This document shows, piece after piece, positions 20,785 to 57,181 of a stretch of 64,000 nucleotides of DNA. The translations under genes and the position numbers were made by a program. The stretch is from contig CAXUUL010000008.1 in NCBI GenBank assembly GCA_964255285.1, forward strand, positions 1 through 64,000, written 5' to 3'. The notes below the pieces were generated by a model. That model saw only the letters and a list, made by a program, of their open reading frames with translations, made no database searches and was not told where the DNA came from. Position 1 is the stretch's first letter. Each line of letters begins with the position of its first letter. Source of the stretch: Ionaspis alba. Taxonomy: Eukaryota.

Positions 20785-23700
20785 CTACTTCGATCTCCCA
20801 CTCCTGCCTCCCTTTCTCCCTTCTCTGCCTTCTTTCGCCTTCACAGCGGCCTCTTCTTCCTCTCTTTCCTCCTGCTCCTTCTCCAGTAATTCCGTTGGCT
20901 TCGGTCTGTCCTTCAAGAATATGTGTGGCTTCCCCGGCTCGAGGATGTCAATGATGATGTGGCCGAGATCGCGCCACTCCACTGGTTTCATTGAATAATG
21001 CGTGAACCCTGCAGCTGCAGACTCACGCCATCCTTTAGTCATGACATTGGCGGAAAGTGAGACCATAGGAAGAGGAGGATAGTGGTTTTCCGCTTCCCAC
21101 GTACGGATGGTACGACAGGCGGTGTAGCCATCTAGGCGAGGCATTTCGATGTCCGTCTCAACAGAGCCATGTCAGCAGATGATTAACAGCTACAAGACGT
21201 TGGATGAAAGAAGCGCAACCAAGATAGAACACGAGGATTTTATCATGAGGAGAAGACTTACGACAACCAAAGAATAATGGAGGGGTTTGTGAGCAAAGAC
21301 TTTGTCGACACATTCTTGGCCGTCCCAAGCTTTGGTTACTTCCATTCCACAAATACGGCCCAGAAAATTGACAAGAAGCTATTGACATATTCCGTAAGTC
21401 CTGTACACACAAGTATTGGCAATTTTCCTACCTCCATGTTAAGATGATTGTCCTCCACGGCAAGAACGCGAATCCCCTTCCCACCTAGCACATTCTTGAA
21501 TAAAGCATAGGATGTCCGTTGTGCAAGCTGCTTTTCCTTTAACTCAGCACGAGACCCATCGTCATCGTTCTGCGAGTTCTCTTGGTCCGGGTCGAAGATC
21601 TTGGCAAATTTGTGCGGCTTTGCCGGCTTAAGGAGAAAGCGAAGACGGTTGTCAGCGGCCAGCTGTTTGTAATCGAAGTCCGGAGCACCGACCGTGATCG
21701 CTTTTTTCTGTGCTTGGTCGGTGACCACCACAATACACGTGTGAGGGTGAGAGATCGAAGCCAGGATTTGATTCATGAATGCCAGAACCTGCTGTGCCTG
21801 ACTGAGCTGGAGGACGATATGCGTGAAAGTAACAGGGTCATCGCCACTGATCATGTTCTGGCTTGATTCTACGTCGCCATCAGTGGTCAATTGGGCGGGA
21901 ATTGACTTTGGTAGGATGCGTTGGATATGATCCTGCGTTGTACGCCTCGTATTCTCTTGCGGGCATACAATCAAAATGGAGAGCATGGGAGGGCGGAAAG
22001 ATTCAGCTGCAACCGTTGAAGGCGTATTATTGTCACTTTCAGCATTCTCGGATATTCCGGTAAGACCAAGAGACGGTCGCGGTGTAGCTCCGCTATCATC
22101 GGAAGGTCCGCTGACGTTTGACCCCAGTTGAGATGGTAATGTTAGCTTCATCGTAGTCCCTTGAGATCCACTGTCCATAGTGGAGGCTGACGACCTTAGA
22201 GAACGATGGAATGGGTTCGAACCAATCGACGGATCCGAGCTGCTTGATGACATCAACGCAGGGGAGTCCGTGCCAGTCCTCAATAGTCGAGGGGCAACAG
22301 TGCCTGGAGACTCCATCACCCCAGCACGGAAAACATGGCCCTGGCTTGAGATGGCCGGTGATGGTAAGACAGATCCGGATACGCTCGGGGTCAGAGCATC
22401 ATTCGATTGGCTCAGTGAGCCTCGAGTGGCAAAACGTGCGAAGAATGTAAAAGTGGAACCTTTCCCAGGCACACTGGTTGCGTCGATCTGACCGCCATGT
22501 AGCTCGACCATGGTCCTACAAAGAATGAGACCCAGACCTGTGCCGCCAACATTGCGAGTATCGTTGTTATCAATTTGACTGTAGGGCTTGAAGAGCAGTT
22601 TCTTGTCTTCTTCCGTAAAGCCGGCCCCTGTGTCCTTAACCATGAAGTGTATCAAAATATCGTTTTCGTCGAGTTTGCCACTCGGTGTGCTCTCGGGAAC
22701 GTGATCCAAGAGGTCGCACTTCACGTAGACTTCTCCGTGTTTTGTGAACTTGATGGCGTTGCCAATCAGGTTCAACAAAATTTGCTTAATCCTTCCAGAG
22801 TCGCCTTTGACAGTCGACGGTACGTCTTCGGTCATTTCGTAGCAGAGTTCGAGCCCTTTCTCCGTAGCCTTGGACATCAAGGTCTCCATGACCTCCTCGA
22901 TAATGGAACGTGGACTGAACCAGGAAAGAGAAAGCTTGAGCATCTTTGCCTCAGCTTTCGAAACATCCAAAATATCATTGATCAACGTGTGCATCCCTTG
23001 AGCGGCCTTCTGCGCTCCGAAAGTCCAGTCCTGTTGATGCTCGTCTAATCCACTGTTCGCCAAGAATTGCAGATTACCAAGGATGCCGTTCAAGGGTGTC
23101 CGGATCTCGTGGGACATGGAGCTGAGGTATCCCATTTTTCGGCTCATCTCCTTCTCCAGAGCGTCATTAGCTCGTTTCAGCTGGGCCTCGCTGTTCTTCT
23201 GGTCACTAATATCTGCGCAAGCAATGAACCATTCAACGTCTAACTTGTCCCAGTTGATCGATTCAATGTAAGAGCCTTGCACTAGATGCCATCGAAATTC
23301 CCCTTTAGCCGACTTCAATCTCATTTCTGTTGTGATGGTAAGGTTTCCCTGTGCATCCTTATTGCATTTGATGATTCCGTCCTTCACCAGGCCCTGAAGT
23401 AAATCATTCGGAGCTTGGACGCCTGAAGAAGGAGAAGATGGATCGGACCCGAGAGCTTTCATAGTCTGGTCAGTATCAGTAGTCCCCTGGGACTGATTCG
23501 TGGATGTTGATGAGTCTTGGCGAGCAGTGCGTCTCTTCCGTGGTGGGGTCTCTTTCGACGACATGGACGTGGAATCAGTTCCAAACCCAGGAAAGCGACA
23601 TTTGACGAGATCGTCGGGATGAACGTGTTGAAGAAATCCAAACCCAAGAGCTTCCGGCTCGTCCTGTCCTGAGTAGGAGCACCATTGTTTATTCGCGAAC

Positions 23701-26657
23701 AGAATTCCTCGATTGACAGATGCAGCAAAAATCGGATAAGGGTTGGAGTCGGCGAGAGCCCGGTACTTTTTCTCAGATTCGAGGCTCACTTTCTGGTCTC
23801 GGGACAGCTTTTCCGCGACGTGCTGGTCGTTGATATCCATAGCTTGGCCATGCCAGTGTTTTACAAATCCGTGTTTGTCTTTGAGAGGTAGTATGCGGAT
23901 CTGGAACCAACGGTATTGTCCATCAAACCTCCTCAGACGAGCTTGTTGAGATACCTGATCACCCAGTAGAAGAGCTTTGGGCCACTTTGTCCGGAATTCC
24001 TTTCGGTCGTCAGGATGCATGTTGTCCCACGGATGATTGTGTATTTCGGCCGCAGATTCGCTGCGATACGCCTGAAATTTTGTGTTTGCCCAAACAATGC
24101 GACCCTTTTCAGCTTCGCAAACGAATTGTTGAGTTGCTCCGTTGTCGATCATAAGTTTGAACATGGTAGACGTAGGGTCTTTGAAATTGTAGTCCAGTTC
24201 CCGCGGGGTCCTGATGTCTCCTGAGGGCTGCTCGGTCTGGGGGACACTGGTCGAGGTACTTGGAAGAGATGGTTGCGTAGCCTTCAAATCTGCACCGTGC
24301 GACCGTAGAACATTTCGTTTACGATCACCATATTCGGGTTCTGGGTTACTAGTACGAGGGTAAGTTGCATTCCGGTTCTCGTCCACTTGACTCGCGGACT
24401 GGCTTTTGAAGGAGAAGTACTCCTGGTCGTTTCCGGAAGTCGTAGTAGGATGTTCTACCTCTGGCGTTTGTCCAGAACGTGATTGACCGACTCGATGTCC
24501 GAAATCTTGAGATACCCAACCAGGAGTACCAACGACCGATCCACCACCTAGCGATCCCCGAGGACTGTGCATGGACATGCTCGAGTATTCACTTGTCACA
24601 CTACTTGTACTCGTTGGAGAAAATGGACGCTGACTACCTTCAAGAAAGGCAATTCCAGCTGTGCTAGCAATACTAGACAGCTGTGGCTGCGGTGGAGGTC
24701 CATGAACGTTCCGTCTGCGAAGCAGAGCGGCAACTTCGTTCTGGAGGTTCGAATGTTGACGAGCGTTGTAAAATGCTGTAGCAAGCAAAGGTCCGAGATT
24801 CTCAAGAGAAGTAGTAAGTGGAGATGGGTAAGGAACAGTAGGGGCAAGAATCGAAAGTATTGCAATGGGCATTCGCTGATTGATCTCGGAAGACGAGGCT
24901 AGAGAAGGCTGGCCGAATTTCGACGTCAACGCAGAATGAGACTTATCGTTTGCTGCACCTCGGACTCCGCTTATGCGTTCGTCAACAAGACGTCTAGGAC
25001 GCTTCAGAGGAGACCAGGTGGGGTGTATCAAAGGAACATGCACGATCGAGCACGCTTGGTCTACCCCAATGGCCGGTATGTCTTGGACTCTCGAGTAATC
25101 ATGTTCTGGCGGGTCTTCCTCAAATGCATTTTCATCGATAGCAGTAGCCGAGAAAAATGGATTTAGTTCCGGATCTGCCTGCACAGCAGGGGACGGAGCT
25201 GGACTTTGTGACCAGGGTGAGGCTGATATCTGCTCATAGTCATCATATGCCGCTGTGAAGGCACGATCGTGTTGACCATCATCTTCCGATGTTTGCGGTG
25301 CTGAAGAACTCTTTGAGCTGCTACTTGTTTGGCTATCAGGACGTTTCTGTGACCTTGATACCTTTGCCTGAACCGAACGATCTCCACTCGGAACTTGGCG
25401 CACTGGGAGCGGTTGTTCAGGAGTTGGCCAGCTTGTTTTCTCAGTCGGTCCTCTCCTCTTGTGCAAACTCATTTCCTGTTCGAAAGAAAGAGACCTGTCA
25501 AAGTACTCACGGGTCAACATGATCGGCCTGCTTTTATCTAGAACTCTAAGAACTCCGGCACTCGTGAGCAAGGGATCAGCTTCTGATTCGAGTGGCTGCA
25601 CTACAGTCAGGATTCTGCCATGCGATGGCCGACTCGATGCATATGTGTCCTCGCTAAGGGTTCCTTTTGGGACTTCTGCATCATGGCGTTGCAACACCTC
25701 AGCACTGAGTTGAATGCTCTTGGTCGGGTTTTCGTCGACAGGCCGCCCTGTGCGCAATGAGAACTGACTGCCCGTACGCACGATTTGCGGTCTTCTAGGG
25801 ATGGTGGATGCATTTACTGCAGACTCCGGAACAGTGGATTGAGCTTTGGGTGGGTATCCGGCGTACGAGTGGCGTGCTTCCATTCTTGGACGCATGGGTC
25901 TTGCTGGACTACTTGATATTGGTGCATTTTTCTCCCTTGTTGAACTTGCAAGTTTGTCAGATTCCTTGTTGCCAATCGTCGATTCTTGACCGGGTGTCTC
26001 GACAGAGCTGCTTCTTGCACTTTGTGGTTCATTTGCTAGTCGGGAAAGTAGATCTTCCTCGCCAATATTGAACGTTGCCATCTGAGCCCAAGGGACATTC
26101 TCAATGTCTGTGCTGTCAGAAGGCACAGCCAGCGTCGCTCGCTCCGCCCCGTAACAATCTTTCATAATTCTTGTGACTTGCGACCAGAAAGGATTTAACC
26201 CTGGTTCAGCTTGAATGCGCAGCATAACGTCGTACAGGTTTGGTCCAGCACTCTGGGCCATCGTGCGCATTTCCGGATTCCCAGGCGGAACAAACGCGTG
26301 CATGGAAGCTGGTGTGAGGTGGCCAGAAGCCTTGAAGTCTTGGGCCATGCGACCCTTTGCCAGTTTCATTGGTGAGGGAGCAACAGTAGGCGACAAAGCA
26401 GTGAAAGGCTTATGGAGAGCTGGGGTGCCCAAAGGCGTACCGGTGTCAACCGTCATGGGTGGAAACGGGTAAGATGGTGTCAAGACCTCGGAGATCGCAG
26501 GCGTTTGAGTCGACTCTTTTCCGCGAACAGTCTGGTTTGATTCCGTCGAGGTTGCTTGAGACCCGCCCATGGTCGGACTGGTAACCGCACTCTCACCCAC
26601 ATGACGAGGAGACGATCGGGCCAATGTCTCCTCAGCGATGGGAGAGAATCTGTCCAT
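20785..26657 (-). CDS. Hybrid sensor histidine kinase (long N-terminus, two PAS/PAC, HisKA, HATPase_c, degenerate plus canonical receiver); architecture resembles fungal group V
   Basis: PAS/PAC motifs MHPDD...RLRRFDGQYRWF and VHPDD...GEFRWHL. H-box SSMSHEIRTPLNGILG, N-box QILLNLIGNAIKFT, G1 DTGAG, G2 GGTGLGL. Receiver VLAVEDN...VV-TDIEMP...SLSAN...KP after two introns. Group assignment is inference. Confidence 0.93.
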
Positions 26658-27038
26658 GCTGACCGACGATTTCAGCAAGCGGCCTCTCCAAGCTCAGTCG
26701 TGGATGCCCACCAGGGCGCGGTTCGGTTGCATGGTTACTGACTGCCTCTCCGCAGTGTGTTTGGATCGAAGGTTTGGAGGCGTGCTGGGAATGACGTAGG
26801 GGGTGTCAGATCCGACGCCTCGCCACGGTGGAATTTTTGACACCTTGACCGTTGTGCGCACCGGTCGATTGTAAATTGATGGAAGAAGAAACAAGAACGA
26901 GCGTGGGGTTCGGATCAATGCGCGGCGTAACTAATTTACTGAAGAAGCAGGAAAGCTGTAGAGAAGGGATGGTGCGAGTGAGGGTGGTAGTCGTAGTGGA
27001 CCAGGAGGAGGTCAGTTAAGGTATTAGGATGCGCAGGC

Positions 27039-54455: not shown

Positions 54456-55215
54456 ATAATAACAAATGATGATAAAGGCACCAGCGCTGGGAGAGAGGTG
54501 TTCACGACCGTTGGAAAAGGCTCGTCTGATAAATGCTAGAAGACATGGGAGAGAGCCGACCCTCCTAAACATGAGATCCACTTTCGGCGAAGAGCTGCCA
54601 ACAGGAAAGGATGCTATAAGTACGAGGTAGAAGTCCACGTAGAGGTCATACAGAATGTAAATGTTCTTCGTCCATCAGTGTTTTAAGAGTGATCGTGATG
54701 TTACGGGGGCAGACGCAGATTCTATGCGCCGTCGTTGGGCAGGATTACTATGGGCTGGAACATGAGGCACTGTCACATGCTAAATCAATAATATTTGAAA
54801 AATTGTGTTCATGTTCATGCTTCTAGTCCAAAGCGCAGGTTGATCTGAGGTATCTACGAGCCGCATGCTTTTCATTGTAGATCGGAATTTGATGGAACAG
54901 TACTTCCCGTACGACGTACCAGGTCTCGCTGATACTTTGTGAGTAAGGAGTCGTTATCAAACCCGTTTTGTTTCCCTGGCATTGGTGGGAGCGGAGCTGA
55001 CTGATGGCAGTGAGGCGTCATCGGTTCGTTGTTAGCGCCACAACTTAAAATCTTGTTTGACATCTCCTTTTGACGCGACCGACGCATTCTCATTCTTCTC
55101 CCTTTGCTGCCTTCCTTTCCTTCCCTATCAATTCACACATCATCCTAGGCTTCTCTCTTCCTTGACCCCCTTCTCGTCCCACTGAAGCACAGAGCTTGTC
55201 CGCCTAAGCTTTACC

Positions 55216-56823
55216 ATGTCTGAAGCCCCTCCTCAGCTTGGAGACATTCCCCAATATTCCGAGATGAATATCCCGACCTTGTCGACCAGCACAGGCAGCA
55301 ACCAGGCTGCTGCTACATCAACTTCGAATGGTAATTCATCAGTACAGTACACGAAGAATGCCATTTACGGCAGTAAGGTGAGCTTCTGAGATTTCCCATA
55401 TCGGTCGAACGGTGCTGACCGGATCGTCCATCAGTCTTCTAGGCAGCTCGCGTGACCCAAGTTGATAATCTGATTTCTGTGCTCTAGATGCTCAATCGGC
55501 TGCAAATACCATCAGCAACCATCCAGCGACACAGAACGTCAAGGATACAGTCACCAACGGTCAGGTGTGTCTACTAGACGGAGCCTAGCTTCTGAAGCAT
55601 CTACGCTGACTTGTCTCTCTCTAGTTTTCCTCCAACAAGTATCCTTTGTTGTCCATGACCTGATGAGCAGTAGGACCTGTTGCGGAGACAGTCAAGGATC
55701 AGTCCGCAAAGACAACATCAGAATTCAACAAGCTTGCAGACTCACGCACCACTCCTGGCAGTACCGCCGCTACTGGCCAAAACTTGACTCGTATGATACA
55801 TTACTCTCCTAAGTGATTAGTACTGAACGACTTGAAGATTACCATTCATTCTTCTACAATCTTCTCAGTGTAAGGTGGTCTTGACGCAAAATTCGCAGCG
55901 CATGCTGATCGAAACAGTGGCAGCATCCCCGTGCAACCGCACTTTCCTTCTTAACAACCGTTCTATTCATCTTCGCTGCCCGTTATCTGCCTGCACTTCG
56001 CTGGTCGTTCAAGATTTTGTCATATGCACTTGGAGGTCGGTTACTGAAACCCATAGCTCCTCCTATGATTCTAATCGATGAGACAGTGACGGCTACCGCA
56101 GAGATAGCCGGAAAACTGGTACTCAATCAAGGGCTCGCGTCTTCCTTCCGACCCAAGAAATACTATACTATACCCAGAGAGTCGCTTGAAGCTTCTCTGG
56201 AAGATGTTGAGCAGCTCATCAACTTCTTTGTCATTGAATTCCAACGTGTTCTTTTCGCAGAGAACGTCTTCCATACACTAGCCGTAATTTATCCCTCCAT
56301 CACAGTCACCATTGATTCTTTGTAAGCAGCTAATACGTTACAGGCTTTTGCATCAGCTATGGTGTCTTACTGGCTCATCAAGTTCCTGCCACTTTGGGGT
56401 CTCTCGCTCATCGCCGTCTCAATGATATATCTTACACCCCTCATCTACATCAATAACAAGCAAATGATCGATGAACAGCTCAACAACGCCTCCAATGTTG
56501 TCAATTCCCAGGCTGCTCAAGTCAAGGATCTCGCCGGTCACCACGCCGGTCGTGCTTCTGAAACAGTCAAGGCATATGCGGGTGACTACACCGCCAAGGC
56601 GCAGGAATACATCGGAAGTGCTAGAGGGCGTTCTACCTCTCCCGAGGTATCCAGCAAGTCTACAGCTCAAAACCCGATGAAATCTGAGCCCGGTGCACCC
56701 CCGTCGTACAGTTCTTCTGACTTCCCACATGCTCCCAAGCAGGAGCCCACTGCCGGCGTAACATCCCACCAAGAGCAGTACGAGAAGTCGCAATTTGGCG
56801 GCCAAGCTGAGCCTGCGACCTAG
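55216..56823 (+). CDS. rtnA: Reticulon-like protein, 7 exons; first two intervening sequences are complex (stwintrons)
   Basis: Spliced translation ...HPATQNVKDTVTNGPVAETVKDQSAKT...ATGQNLTHYHSFFYNLLSWQHPRAT...RPKKYYTIPRESLE...INFFVIEFQRVLFAEN...YWLIKFLPLWGL..., with two long hydrophobic hairpins. Confidence 0.92.
55373..55487 (+). other. [D5,6] stwintron 1 (internal intron 55378-55434)
   Basis: GTAAG|GTGAGC..GCTGAC..CAG|T.. reconstitutes GTAAGT. Second branch TCTGAT and TAG acceptor at 55487. Confidence 0.8.
55560..55673 (+). other. [D5,6] stwintron 2 (internal intron 55565-55624)
   Basis: GTCAG|GTGTGT..GCTGAC..TAG|T.. reconstitutes GTCAGT. Second branch CCTGAT and CAGTAG acceptor at 55673. 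Confidence 0.8.
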
Positions 56824-57181
56824 AAGTTGGTGGGCGCGGCAAAAGCATTCCGAGCGGCGGGCAGTTAGGAAGATTGGATGGAACGGGAAAAGTAGCGAAG
56901 GGGAGTGAACAGTTGTCGGCAGCAACTGACCCTGTGAATTGATGAGAACGATGGCACGACAGCACATTATGACTGTGAGGTCCTTCACTGTCTATCGCAG
57001 AATCAGTGCATCCATTTCAGATTCGTGTATCTTAGTGCTTGCAGTAGGCGTTAGTTTTAAAAATGGTACTCCAACTACTATGAACTCAATGTCTGAACCG
57101 GTCATGAAAAATGTGGAAGCTTTCACTTCCTCTTTTTTCACAGATCGGATCGTAGATACTAACAATCTACACTTCCTGCCA

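Follow-up and report, generated by a model that had tools for sequence, protein, structure and literature searches.

Does the reticulon-like gene at positions 55216-56823 (+ strand) of Ionaspis alba contig CAXUUL010000008.1 carry two nested introns back to back, and in what order would their parts leave the transcript? The stretch analysed here, called the window below, comprises positions 1 to 64,000 of that contig, and a first-pass annotation of it had read positions 55560-55673 as a second, consecutive [D5,6] stwintron, that is, an intervening sequence in which an internal intron lies between nucleotides (nt) 5 and 6 of the donor of an outer, external intron. This reading fits the sequence, the orthologous loci and the literature. 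As judged from its predicted protein, the gene is the rtnA reticulon-like (AN5404-type) orthologue of a Lecanoromycete, and 55560-55673 is very probably the position-2 [D5,6] stwintron of that gene, 72 nt downstream of the position-1 [D5,6] stwintron.

The first-pass annotation could not tell whether a tandem pair had been reported for this lineage. One has: the tandem rtnA stwintron pair, with the same position and the same class, is already known (Kavalecz et al. 2019, PMC6616335) and is reported there for Lecanoromycetes, so the novelty implied by the annotation falls. In that paper the position-1 [D5,6] stwintron of rtnA (Aspergillus nidulans AN5404) is present in almost all Pezizomycotina (Kavalecz et al. 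2019, Sci Rep 9:9940, PMC6616335), a second [D5,6] stwintron, at position 2, is predicted for many Dothideomycetes, Xylonomycetes and Lecanoromycetes, and both were demonstrated through RNA intermediates by reverse transcription polymerase chain reaction (RT-PCR) in Helminthosporium solani. The H. solani records are the messenger RNA (mRNA) MK410464 and the intermediates MK410465 and MK410466 (PMC6616335 supplement); the mRNA reads ..ATTGCAAATG/GTCCTGTTGCAGAA.. (= ..IANG/PVAE.., the slash marking the junction), and the second intermediate has the rebuilt donor GTGAGT. Table S1 of the same paper gives a second stwintron in 4 of its 12 Lecanoromycete rows (Gyalolechia flavorubescens, Lasallia hispanica, L. 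pustulata and Umbilicaria muehlenbergii) and one only in the other eight; in the four rows the stwintrons are 107-122 nt long, and exon II measures 72 nt in the three Umbilicariaceae and 60 nt in Gyalolechia (PMC6616335).

Architecture and reading frame of the second intervening sequence

The elements that the first-pass annotation had named (GTCAG, a 60 nt internal intron, a T and a 54 nt outer intron) all lie where it placed them, letter for letter. The second stwintron (55560-55673, + strand; 114 nt, phase 1), which we recognise by its signals, its reading frame, its orthologous loci and shuffling controls, opens with GTCAG, the first five nt of the external donor (55560-55564). There follows the 60 nt internal intron (55565-55624) with its donor GTGTGT (55565-70), its branch element GCTGAC (55605-10) and its acceptor TAG (55622-24), the last two separated by a pyrimidine-rich spacer of 11 nt, and all three signals fit the published consensus GTRWGH, DYTRAY and HAG (PMC6616335). 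We accepted as internal introns sequences of at least 42 nt with a branch element 4-24 nt ahead of the acceptor, and 55565-55624 lies within both limits. The T at 55625, directly after the internal intron, completes the external donor as GTCAG/T and begins the 49 nt 3' part of the external intron (55625-55673), in which CCTGAT (55659-64) precedes the tandem acceptors CAG (55668-70) and TAG (55671-73), with 6 nt between CCTGAT and TAG; the external intron thus has 5 + 49 = 54 nt.

What does removal of this sequence do to the protein? Joining 55559 to 55674 is a phase 1 junction that restores ..TVTNG PVAET.., as the first-pass annotation had said it would. Keeping the whole of 55560-55673, or its external part alone, gives in-frame stops, and a splice from the outer donor to the inner acceptor (65 nt) shifts the frame, so only full removal of 55560-55673 keeps the frame. 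These products also bear on the idea that the gene model is in error, with part of 55560-55673 coding or the true exon borders elsewhere. Insertions at position 2 in 6/23 public homologue models would agree with such an error, but besides the stops and the frameshift there is the N-G-PVAE junction, which is common to the clean homologue models and to four contigs that resemble complementary DNA (cDNA; L001, L007, L008 and L034) and which the H. solani cDNA has as well (N-G/PVAE; PMC6616335). We find an error of this kind scarcely credible.

For the tandem acceptors, the first-pass annotation had allowed for plus or minus one Val, and use of CAG (55668-70) in place of TAG does add one Val; yet none of the 23 aligned homologue proteins has an extra Val at the N-G-PVAE junction, and the CAG stands only 3 nt past the branch element, the stated minimum being 4 nt (PMC6616335 Methods). 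Because the homologues are without the extra Val and the CAG is under the 4 nt branch distance, TAG is favoured, and the final acceptor is likely to be TAG 55671-73 rather than CAG.

The sequence just described stands, as had been claimed, 72 nt downstream of one with the identical architecture, exon II (55488-55559, + strand; 72 nt, phase 1 to phase 1) lying between them. The first [D5,6] stwintron (55373-55487, + strand; 115 nt, phase 1) consists in the same way of GTAAG, an internal intron, T and the rest of an external intron: its internal intron (55378-55434) has 57 nt with the signals GTGAGC..GCTGAC..CAG, and its external intron measures 58 nt and contains TCTGAT (55469) and TAG (55485-87). 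It falls in the N-terminal region of the protein, which is disordered in the rtnA group. GTNNG/GT is present at position 1 in 13/13 genomic loci examined. The component introns of the two stwintrons (57, 58, 60 and 54 nt) match the ordinary introns of the gene in size (47-60 nt), and each whole stwintron is about twice as long.

How readily would such arrangements arise by chance? A strict motif based on A. nidulans, GTRWGGTRWGH(25,120)DYTRAY(4,24)HAGH(25,120)DYTRAY(4,24)HAG (PMC6616335), which is a screening heuristic, has the first stwintron (55373) as its sole match in the window, where 0.04 matches are expected per 64 kilobases (kb) on both strands (100 first-order Markov sequences). When the interior of the second stwintron was shuffled with its outer signals fixed, a complete nested intron appeared in 240/200000 shuffles.

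Conservation at orthologous loci

Orthologous loci were collected as follows: metagenome contigs were scanned with an alignment of 21 RtnA proteins, which gave 80 loci, and the exons were located in these by tblastn with the window's own exon peptides. A locus was assigned to a class when exon II and exon III were both placed; L035/L042 and L036 (partial exon II match with unreliable borders) and L061 (negative projected gap) were left out.

Long position-2 sequences, of 107-123 nt, were found in seven lineage groups (L003, L014 and L015; L012, L016, L017, L019 and L033; L038; L039; L065 and L066; L071 and L072; L076). GT stands at +6/+7 in 7/7 of these groups, and in 6/7 there is a complete nested intron under the criteria used here. 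Short position-2 introns, of 48-55 nt (L010/L011, L018, L032, L043 and L062), have GT at +6/+7 in 0/5 distinct cases, and there is no position-2 intron in the genomic loci L002, L004/L005 and L021/L022 or in the four cDNA-like contigs named above. The position-2 state is patchy among the orthologues. An alignment of the window with nine long sequences (n=10) has as its only invariant intronic columns the initial GT, A at +4, GT at +6/+7 and the final AG. A nested intron requires GT at +6/+7; one long intron would not.

By blastx to named proteins, the stwintron-bearing groups include Dirinaria-like, Pleopsidium-like and Schaereria/Toensbergia-like lineages, and Parmeliaceae-like loci, named in the same way, are without a position-2 intron, which agrees with the patchy pattern of Table S1 (PMC6616335). 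A public Sticta canariensis model reads ..NGQV.. into its position-2 sequence, which corresponds to GTCAG/GT as in the window.

The cDNA-like contig L018 has none of the other rtnA introns and keeps at position 2 (L018:276-323) a 48 nt sequence, GTGAGA..AACTGAC..CAG; its nearest genomic relative, L076 (about 82%), has a 47 nt external intron with the donor GTGAG/A. The L018 piece could be an external intron whose internal intron had already been excised, but just as well an ordinary intron that was retained; there is no genomic locus of the same species among the 80, and we did not count the piece as a splicing intermediate. Two sequencing runs of one study consist of DNA contigs. In X1 the identity to the window holds over a contig of 78308 nt, and this run is probably where the window comes from. 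X2, a mixed sample, has low-depth fragments identical to the window (55100-56900), together with long contigs from two further fungi, and the rtn genes of these resemble the window in the conserved exons only.

Order of splicing

In what order would the parts of 55560-55673 be removed? We propose the following: the spliceosome would first define and remove the strong 60 nt internal intron (55565-55624); the joining of G55564 to T55625 would turn the poor site GUCAG/G into the usable donor GUCAG/U; the 54 nt external intron would leave next, by way of the branch element CCUGAU and UAG 55671-73; and G55559, joined to GA at 55674-75, would form the codon GGA (Gly) and so restore ..TVTNG PVAET... 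With the first stwintron this would make four U2-type reactions within 301 nt, and the estimate in the first-pass annotation of four sequential reactions in 300 nt is borne out to the extent that the predicted architecture of both stwintrons gives four component introns in that span. By complementarity to U1, CAG/GUGUGU should be a much better 5' site than the overlapping ACG/GUCAGG. Because the two sites overlap and CAG/GUGUGU is the stronger, the internal donor would be preferred; it should win on the primary transcript, the CAG of GTCAG giving it an ideal exon-side context. Two consecutive U2-type reactions with the internal intron first are the most likely course, given the stronger internal donor, the ordinary sizes of the components, the conserved nested donor and the precedent of H. 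solani (PMC6616335). For this organism we infer the two-step order from an architecture, a homology of position and a conservation of the nested donor that are themselves observed.

Not everything agrees with a second stwintron, and the following points weigh against it. The signals of its external intron are weak, with C at donor +3 and C at the first branch position, and 55560 departs from the strict published motif at two letters; the authors of that motif note that the stwintron consensus may be relaxed (PMC6616335). A relaxed [D5,6] pattern is not rare: there are 5 matches in the 64 kb window, both strands, against 2.5 expected. Among the orthologues, L038 gives no segmentation under the branch-site rule used, and the Pleopsidium-like sequence L039:4335-4443 starts GTGAT/GTAAGC, so that its rebuilt outer donor, GTGAT/T, would not have the G that is usual at +5, perhaps a sign of a stwintron in decay or of an atypical one. 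Finally, the lineage groups are related, and the kept GT is to be read as conservation, not as seven independent events. Because the relaxed pattern alone is not rare, the case for 55560-55673 rests on its place between conserved coding exons and on its conservation in relatives. The other relaxed matches in the window, at 23464-23633 (+), 26530-26755 (+) and 59419-59217 (-), have no convincing coding flanks, some of their components are oddly long, and their number is in keeping with the 2.5 expected by chance.

Two further points of this kind favour an ordinary 114 nt intron, which a single reaction would take out between GUCAGG (55560) and UAG (55673), with the nested signals unused or serving a minor path. 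In our model intron 4 of the same gene uses the donor GTAAGG, so G at +6 is tolerated in this gene, and in Lipomyces starkeyi one complex intron is removed in one step or two (PMC7138796); removal in a single step would, moreover, restore the frame equally well. Against this, the one-step donor GTCAGG is off the published consensus (PMC6616335) at +3 and +6 and overlaps a far better donor 5 nt downstream, and 114 nt is about twice the length of the gene's other introns. A one-step intron would not require the GT at +6/+7 that is kept in all the long groups and in none of the short introns, and an intermediate has been demonstrated for the homologous H. solani sequence (PMC6616335). We regard one-step removal as unlikely.

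Might the tandem arrangement also serve alternative splicing? Here, once the internal introns are out, the rebuilt donor of the first stwintron would at times be joined to the 3' site of the second and exon II skipped, a use that would come in addition to the two-step removal of 55560-55673 proposed above. With 72 nt and phase 1 at both borders exon II is symmetric, and its loss would leave the frame intact (..AIYG-R-PVAET..); for Aspergillus niger and Neurospora crassa rtnA, skipping of this exon by way of the stwintron has been documented (PMC6616335), and two public models of relatives (P0057 and P0050) are without exon II, which may be a gene-caller artefact. However, an exon II of 72 nt in 14/14 genomic loci examined and the conservation of its peptide speak for its regular inclusion, and the published cases of skipping have a standard intron, not a stwintron, at position 2. 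On balance, we doubt that the pair is such a device.

The tandem pair in its gene and among known nested introns

The H. solani sequence is the closest known system with demonstrated intermediates. Like it, the window's second stwintron is at rtnA position 2, in phase 1, at an N-G/PVAE junction and behind a 72 nt exon II, with its internal intron between nt 5 and 6 of the outer donor and with the position-1 stwintron directly before it. It differs from that of H. solani, a member of the Dothideomycetes, in length (290 nt there by the coordinates of Table S1, 114 nt here) and in its rebuilt donor (GTGAG/T there, GTCAG/T here), and in that splicing was established by RT-PCR in H. solani (PMC6616335), the window's stwintron being predicted from sequence. 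In size it is like the Lecanoromycete rows of Table S1 (107-122 nt, with 72 or 60 nt between the stwintrons), the window having 115 and 114 nt, 72 nt apart; this comparison is by coordinates only.

The Onygenales rtnA 'dual intervening sequence' likewise calls for a series of four U2 reactions near the start of the gene, but in that case a discontinuous 'second order' intron encloses both a stwintron and a standard intron, and exon II has been intronised (PMC6616335), whereas the window has two independent stwintrons and an exon II that still codes. The complex introns of Lipomyces rtn ([D4,5], [D6,7] and [D7,8]) are also donor-disrupted nested introns in a reticulon-like gene, but they belong to another subphylum, have other nesting points and occupy a single position (PMC7138796).

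Within the gene, the position-1 and position-2 stwintrons share architecture and phase, but position 1 is near-universal and position 2 patchy, and they differ in one further respect. The external intron of the first stwintron holds a conserved intronic 11-mer, GCTCGCGTGAC (55446-55456, + strand), and nothing comparable was found in the second stwintron in the alignment of the window with the nine long sequences. The 11-mer occurs as an exact, single, + strand copy at the same place, some 40 nt ahead of exon II, both in the window and in 16/80 loci (L002-L005, L010-L012, L014-L017, L019, L021, L022, L033 and L039), the two strands of the 469492 bases being otherwise free of it. The 16 loci are Lecanoromycete-like; the Dothideomycete-like L065, L071 and L076 and the H. 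solani intermediate have a different common stretch, ..TCTTATCTGCAC.., at this place. No mention of the element was found in the literature passages searched. It could be a splicing-regulatory or transcriptional element, and it might regulate the splice order or the inclusion of exon II.

Did the two stwintrons arise from one? The pair might go back to an ancient tandem duplication in which the 3' end of exon I was copied along with the first stwintron, and not to two independent 'stwintronisations'. The 11 residues before each stwintron are alike when set in an intron-anchored register (roughly SVQNAKDSVYS at 55340-55372 and ATQNVKDTVSN at 55527-55559); of 13 offsets, this one scores best in 11/11 loci, and its summed score of 183 compares with -47 +/- 22 for shuffles and was reached by 0/5000 of them. 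Against a duplication, the exon I end is the best whole-protein match in only 3/7 clean proteins, the two stwintrons have no DNA similarity (z -0.7 to 1.4 in 7/7 loci), the region is made of degenerate short repeats, and the loci used in the register test are related. We found no duplication proposal of this kind in the literature passages searched, and we hold a duplication to be possible but unlikely; if it took place, two stwintrons would be the ancestral state, and taxa with a standard intron or none at position 2 would have come to it by loss.

The gene model as a whole runs from ATG to stop (55216-56823, + strand) in 7 exons and 390 amino acids, and has six intervening sequences of which the first two are in phase 1; the published A. 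nidulans rtnA model likewise has six, the first two in phase 1 (PMC6616335). Exon I (55216-55372; 157 nt) ends in phase 1, and exon III (55674-55790; 117 nt) begins GA CCT GTT.. = (G)PVAET, both as placed by the model and the homologue alignment; exons IV-VI have 32, 118 and 197 nt. On the same strand, intron 3 (55791-55837; 47 nt, GTATGA..AAG) is backed by the end-to-end homologue alignment, and the model further places intron 4 (55870-55917; 48 nt), whose donor was discussed above, and intron 6 (56284-56343; 60 nt, GTAATT..CAG). Intron 5 (56036-56086; 51 nt, GTCGGT..CAG) is assigned from homologues that read ..LG(V/I)TA.. without 17 extra residues. It is stop-free and in frame, so that read-through would insert these 17 residues within the reticulon domain and leave the open reading frame unbroken, which makes it an easy annotation trap.

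Identification of the gene comes from its protein. The part encoded by 55918-56283 matches PF02453 (Reticulon) in Pfam with E 7e-12 and 46 bits (cut-off 31.8), and a search with this part gave 402 proteins at E <= 0.001 among 992 candidates, the top-scoring named rows being lichen-forming fungi and other groups appearing first at rank 53. Over its full length the spliced protein can be aligned with RtnA proteins of Lecanoromycetes, with identities of 65-75% (Varicellaria rhodocarpa 72% over 390 columns). Identity to Lasallia pustulata, one of the Table S1 species, is about 71%, which makes the window's fungus another lineage, and no very close relative of this fungus is among the proteins returned. 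Varicellaria, Pleopsidium and Dirinaria are classed as Lecanoromycetes in our comparisons according to NCBI taxonomy.

The other genera of the aligned lichen-fungus proteins belong to the class Lecanoromycetes as well. Public RtnA models of lichen fungi have spurious insertions at position 1 in 6/23 cases and at position 2 in as many (6/23), and some are without exon II; the affected models are P0002, P0004, P0013, P0017, P0019, P0029, P0031, P0041, P0045, P0050 and P0057. Gene callers evidently mishandle both stwintron positions, and the practical value of the locus is in annotation.

The locus adds no new principle beyond Kavalecz et al. 2019 (PMC6616335). It gives, for a lichen-type fungus, one more clean case of back-to-back [D5,6] stwintrons, the rarest arrangement so far published, which would take four reactions within some 300 nt. 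Stwintrons matter more widely because they indicate that introns need not leave co-transcriptionally in one step, and they bear on the origin of introns, on intron fusion and on exon skipping.

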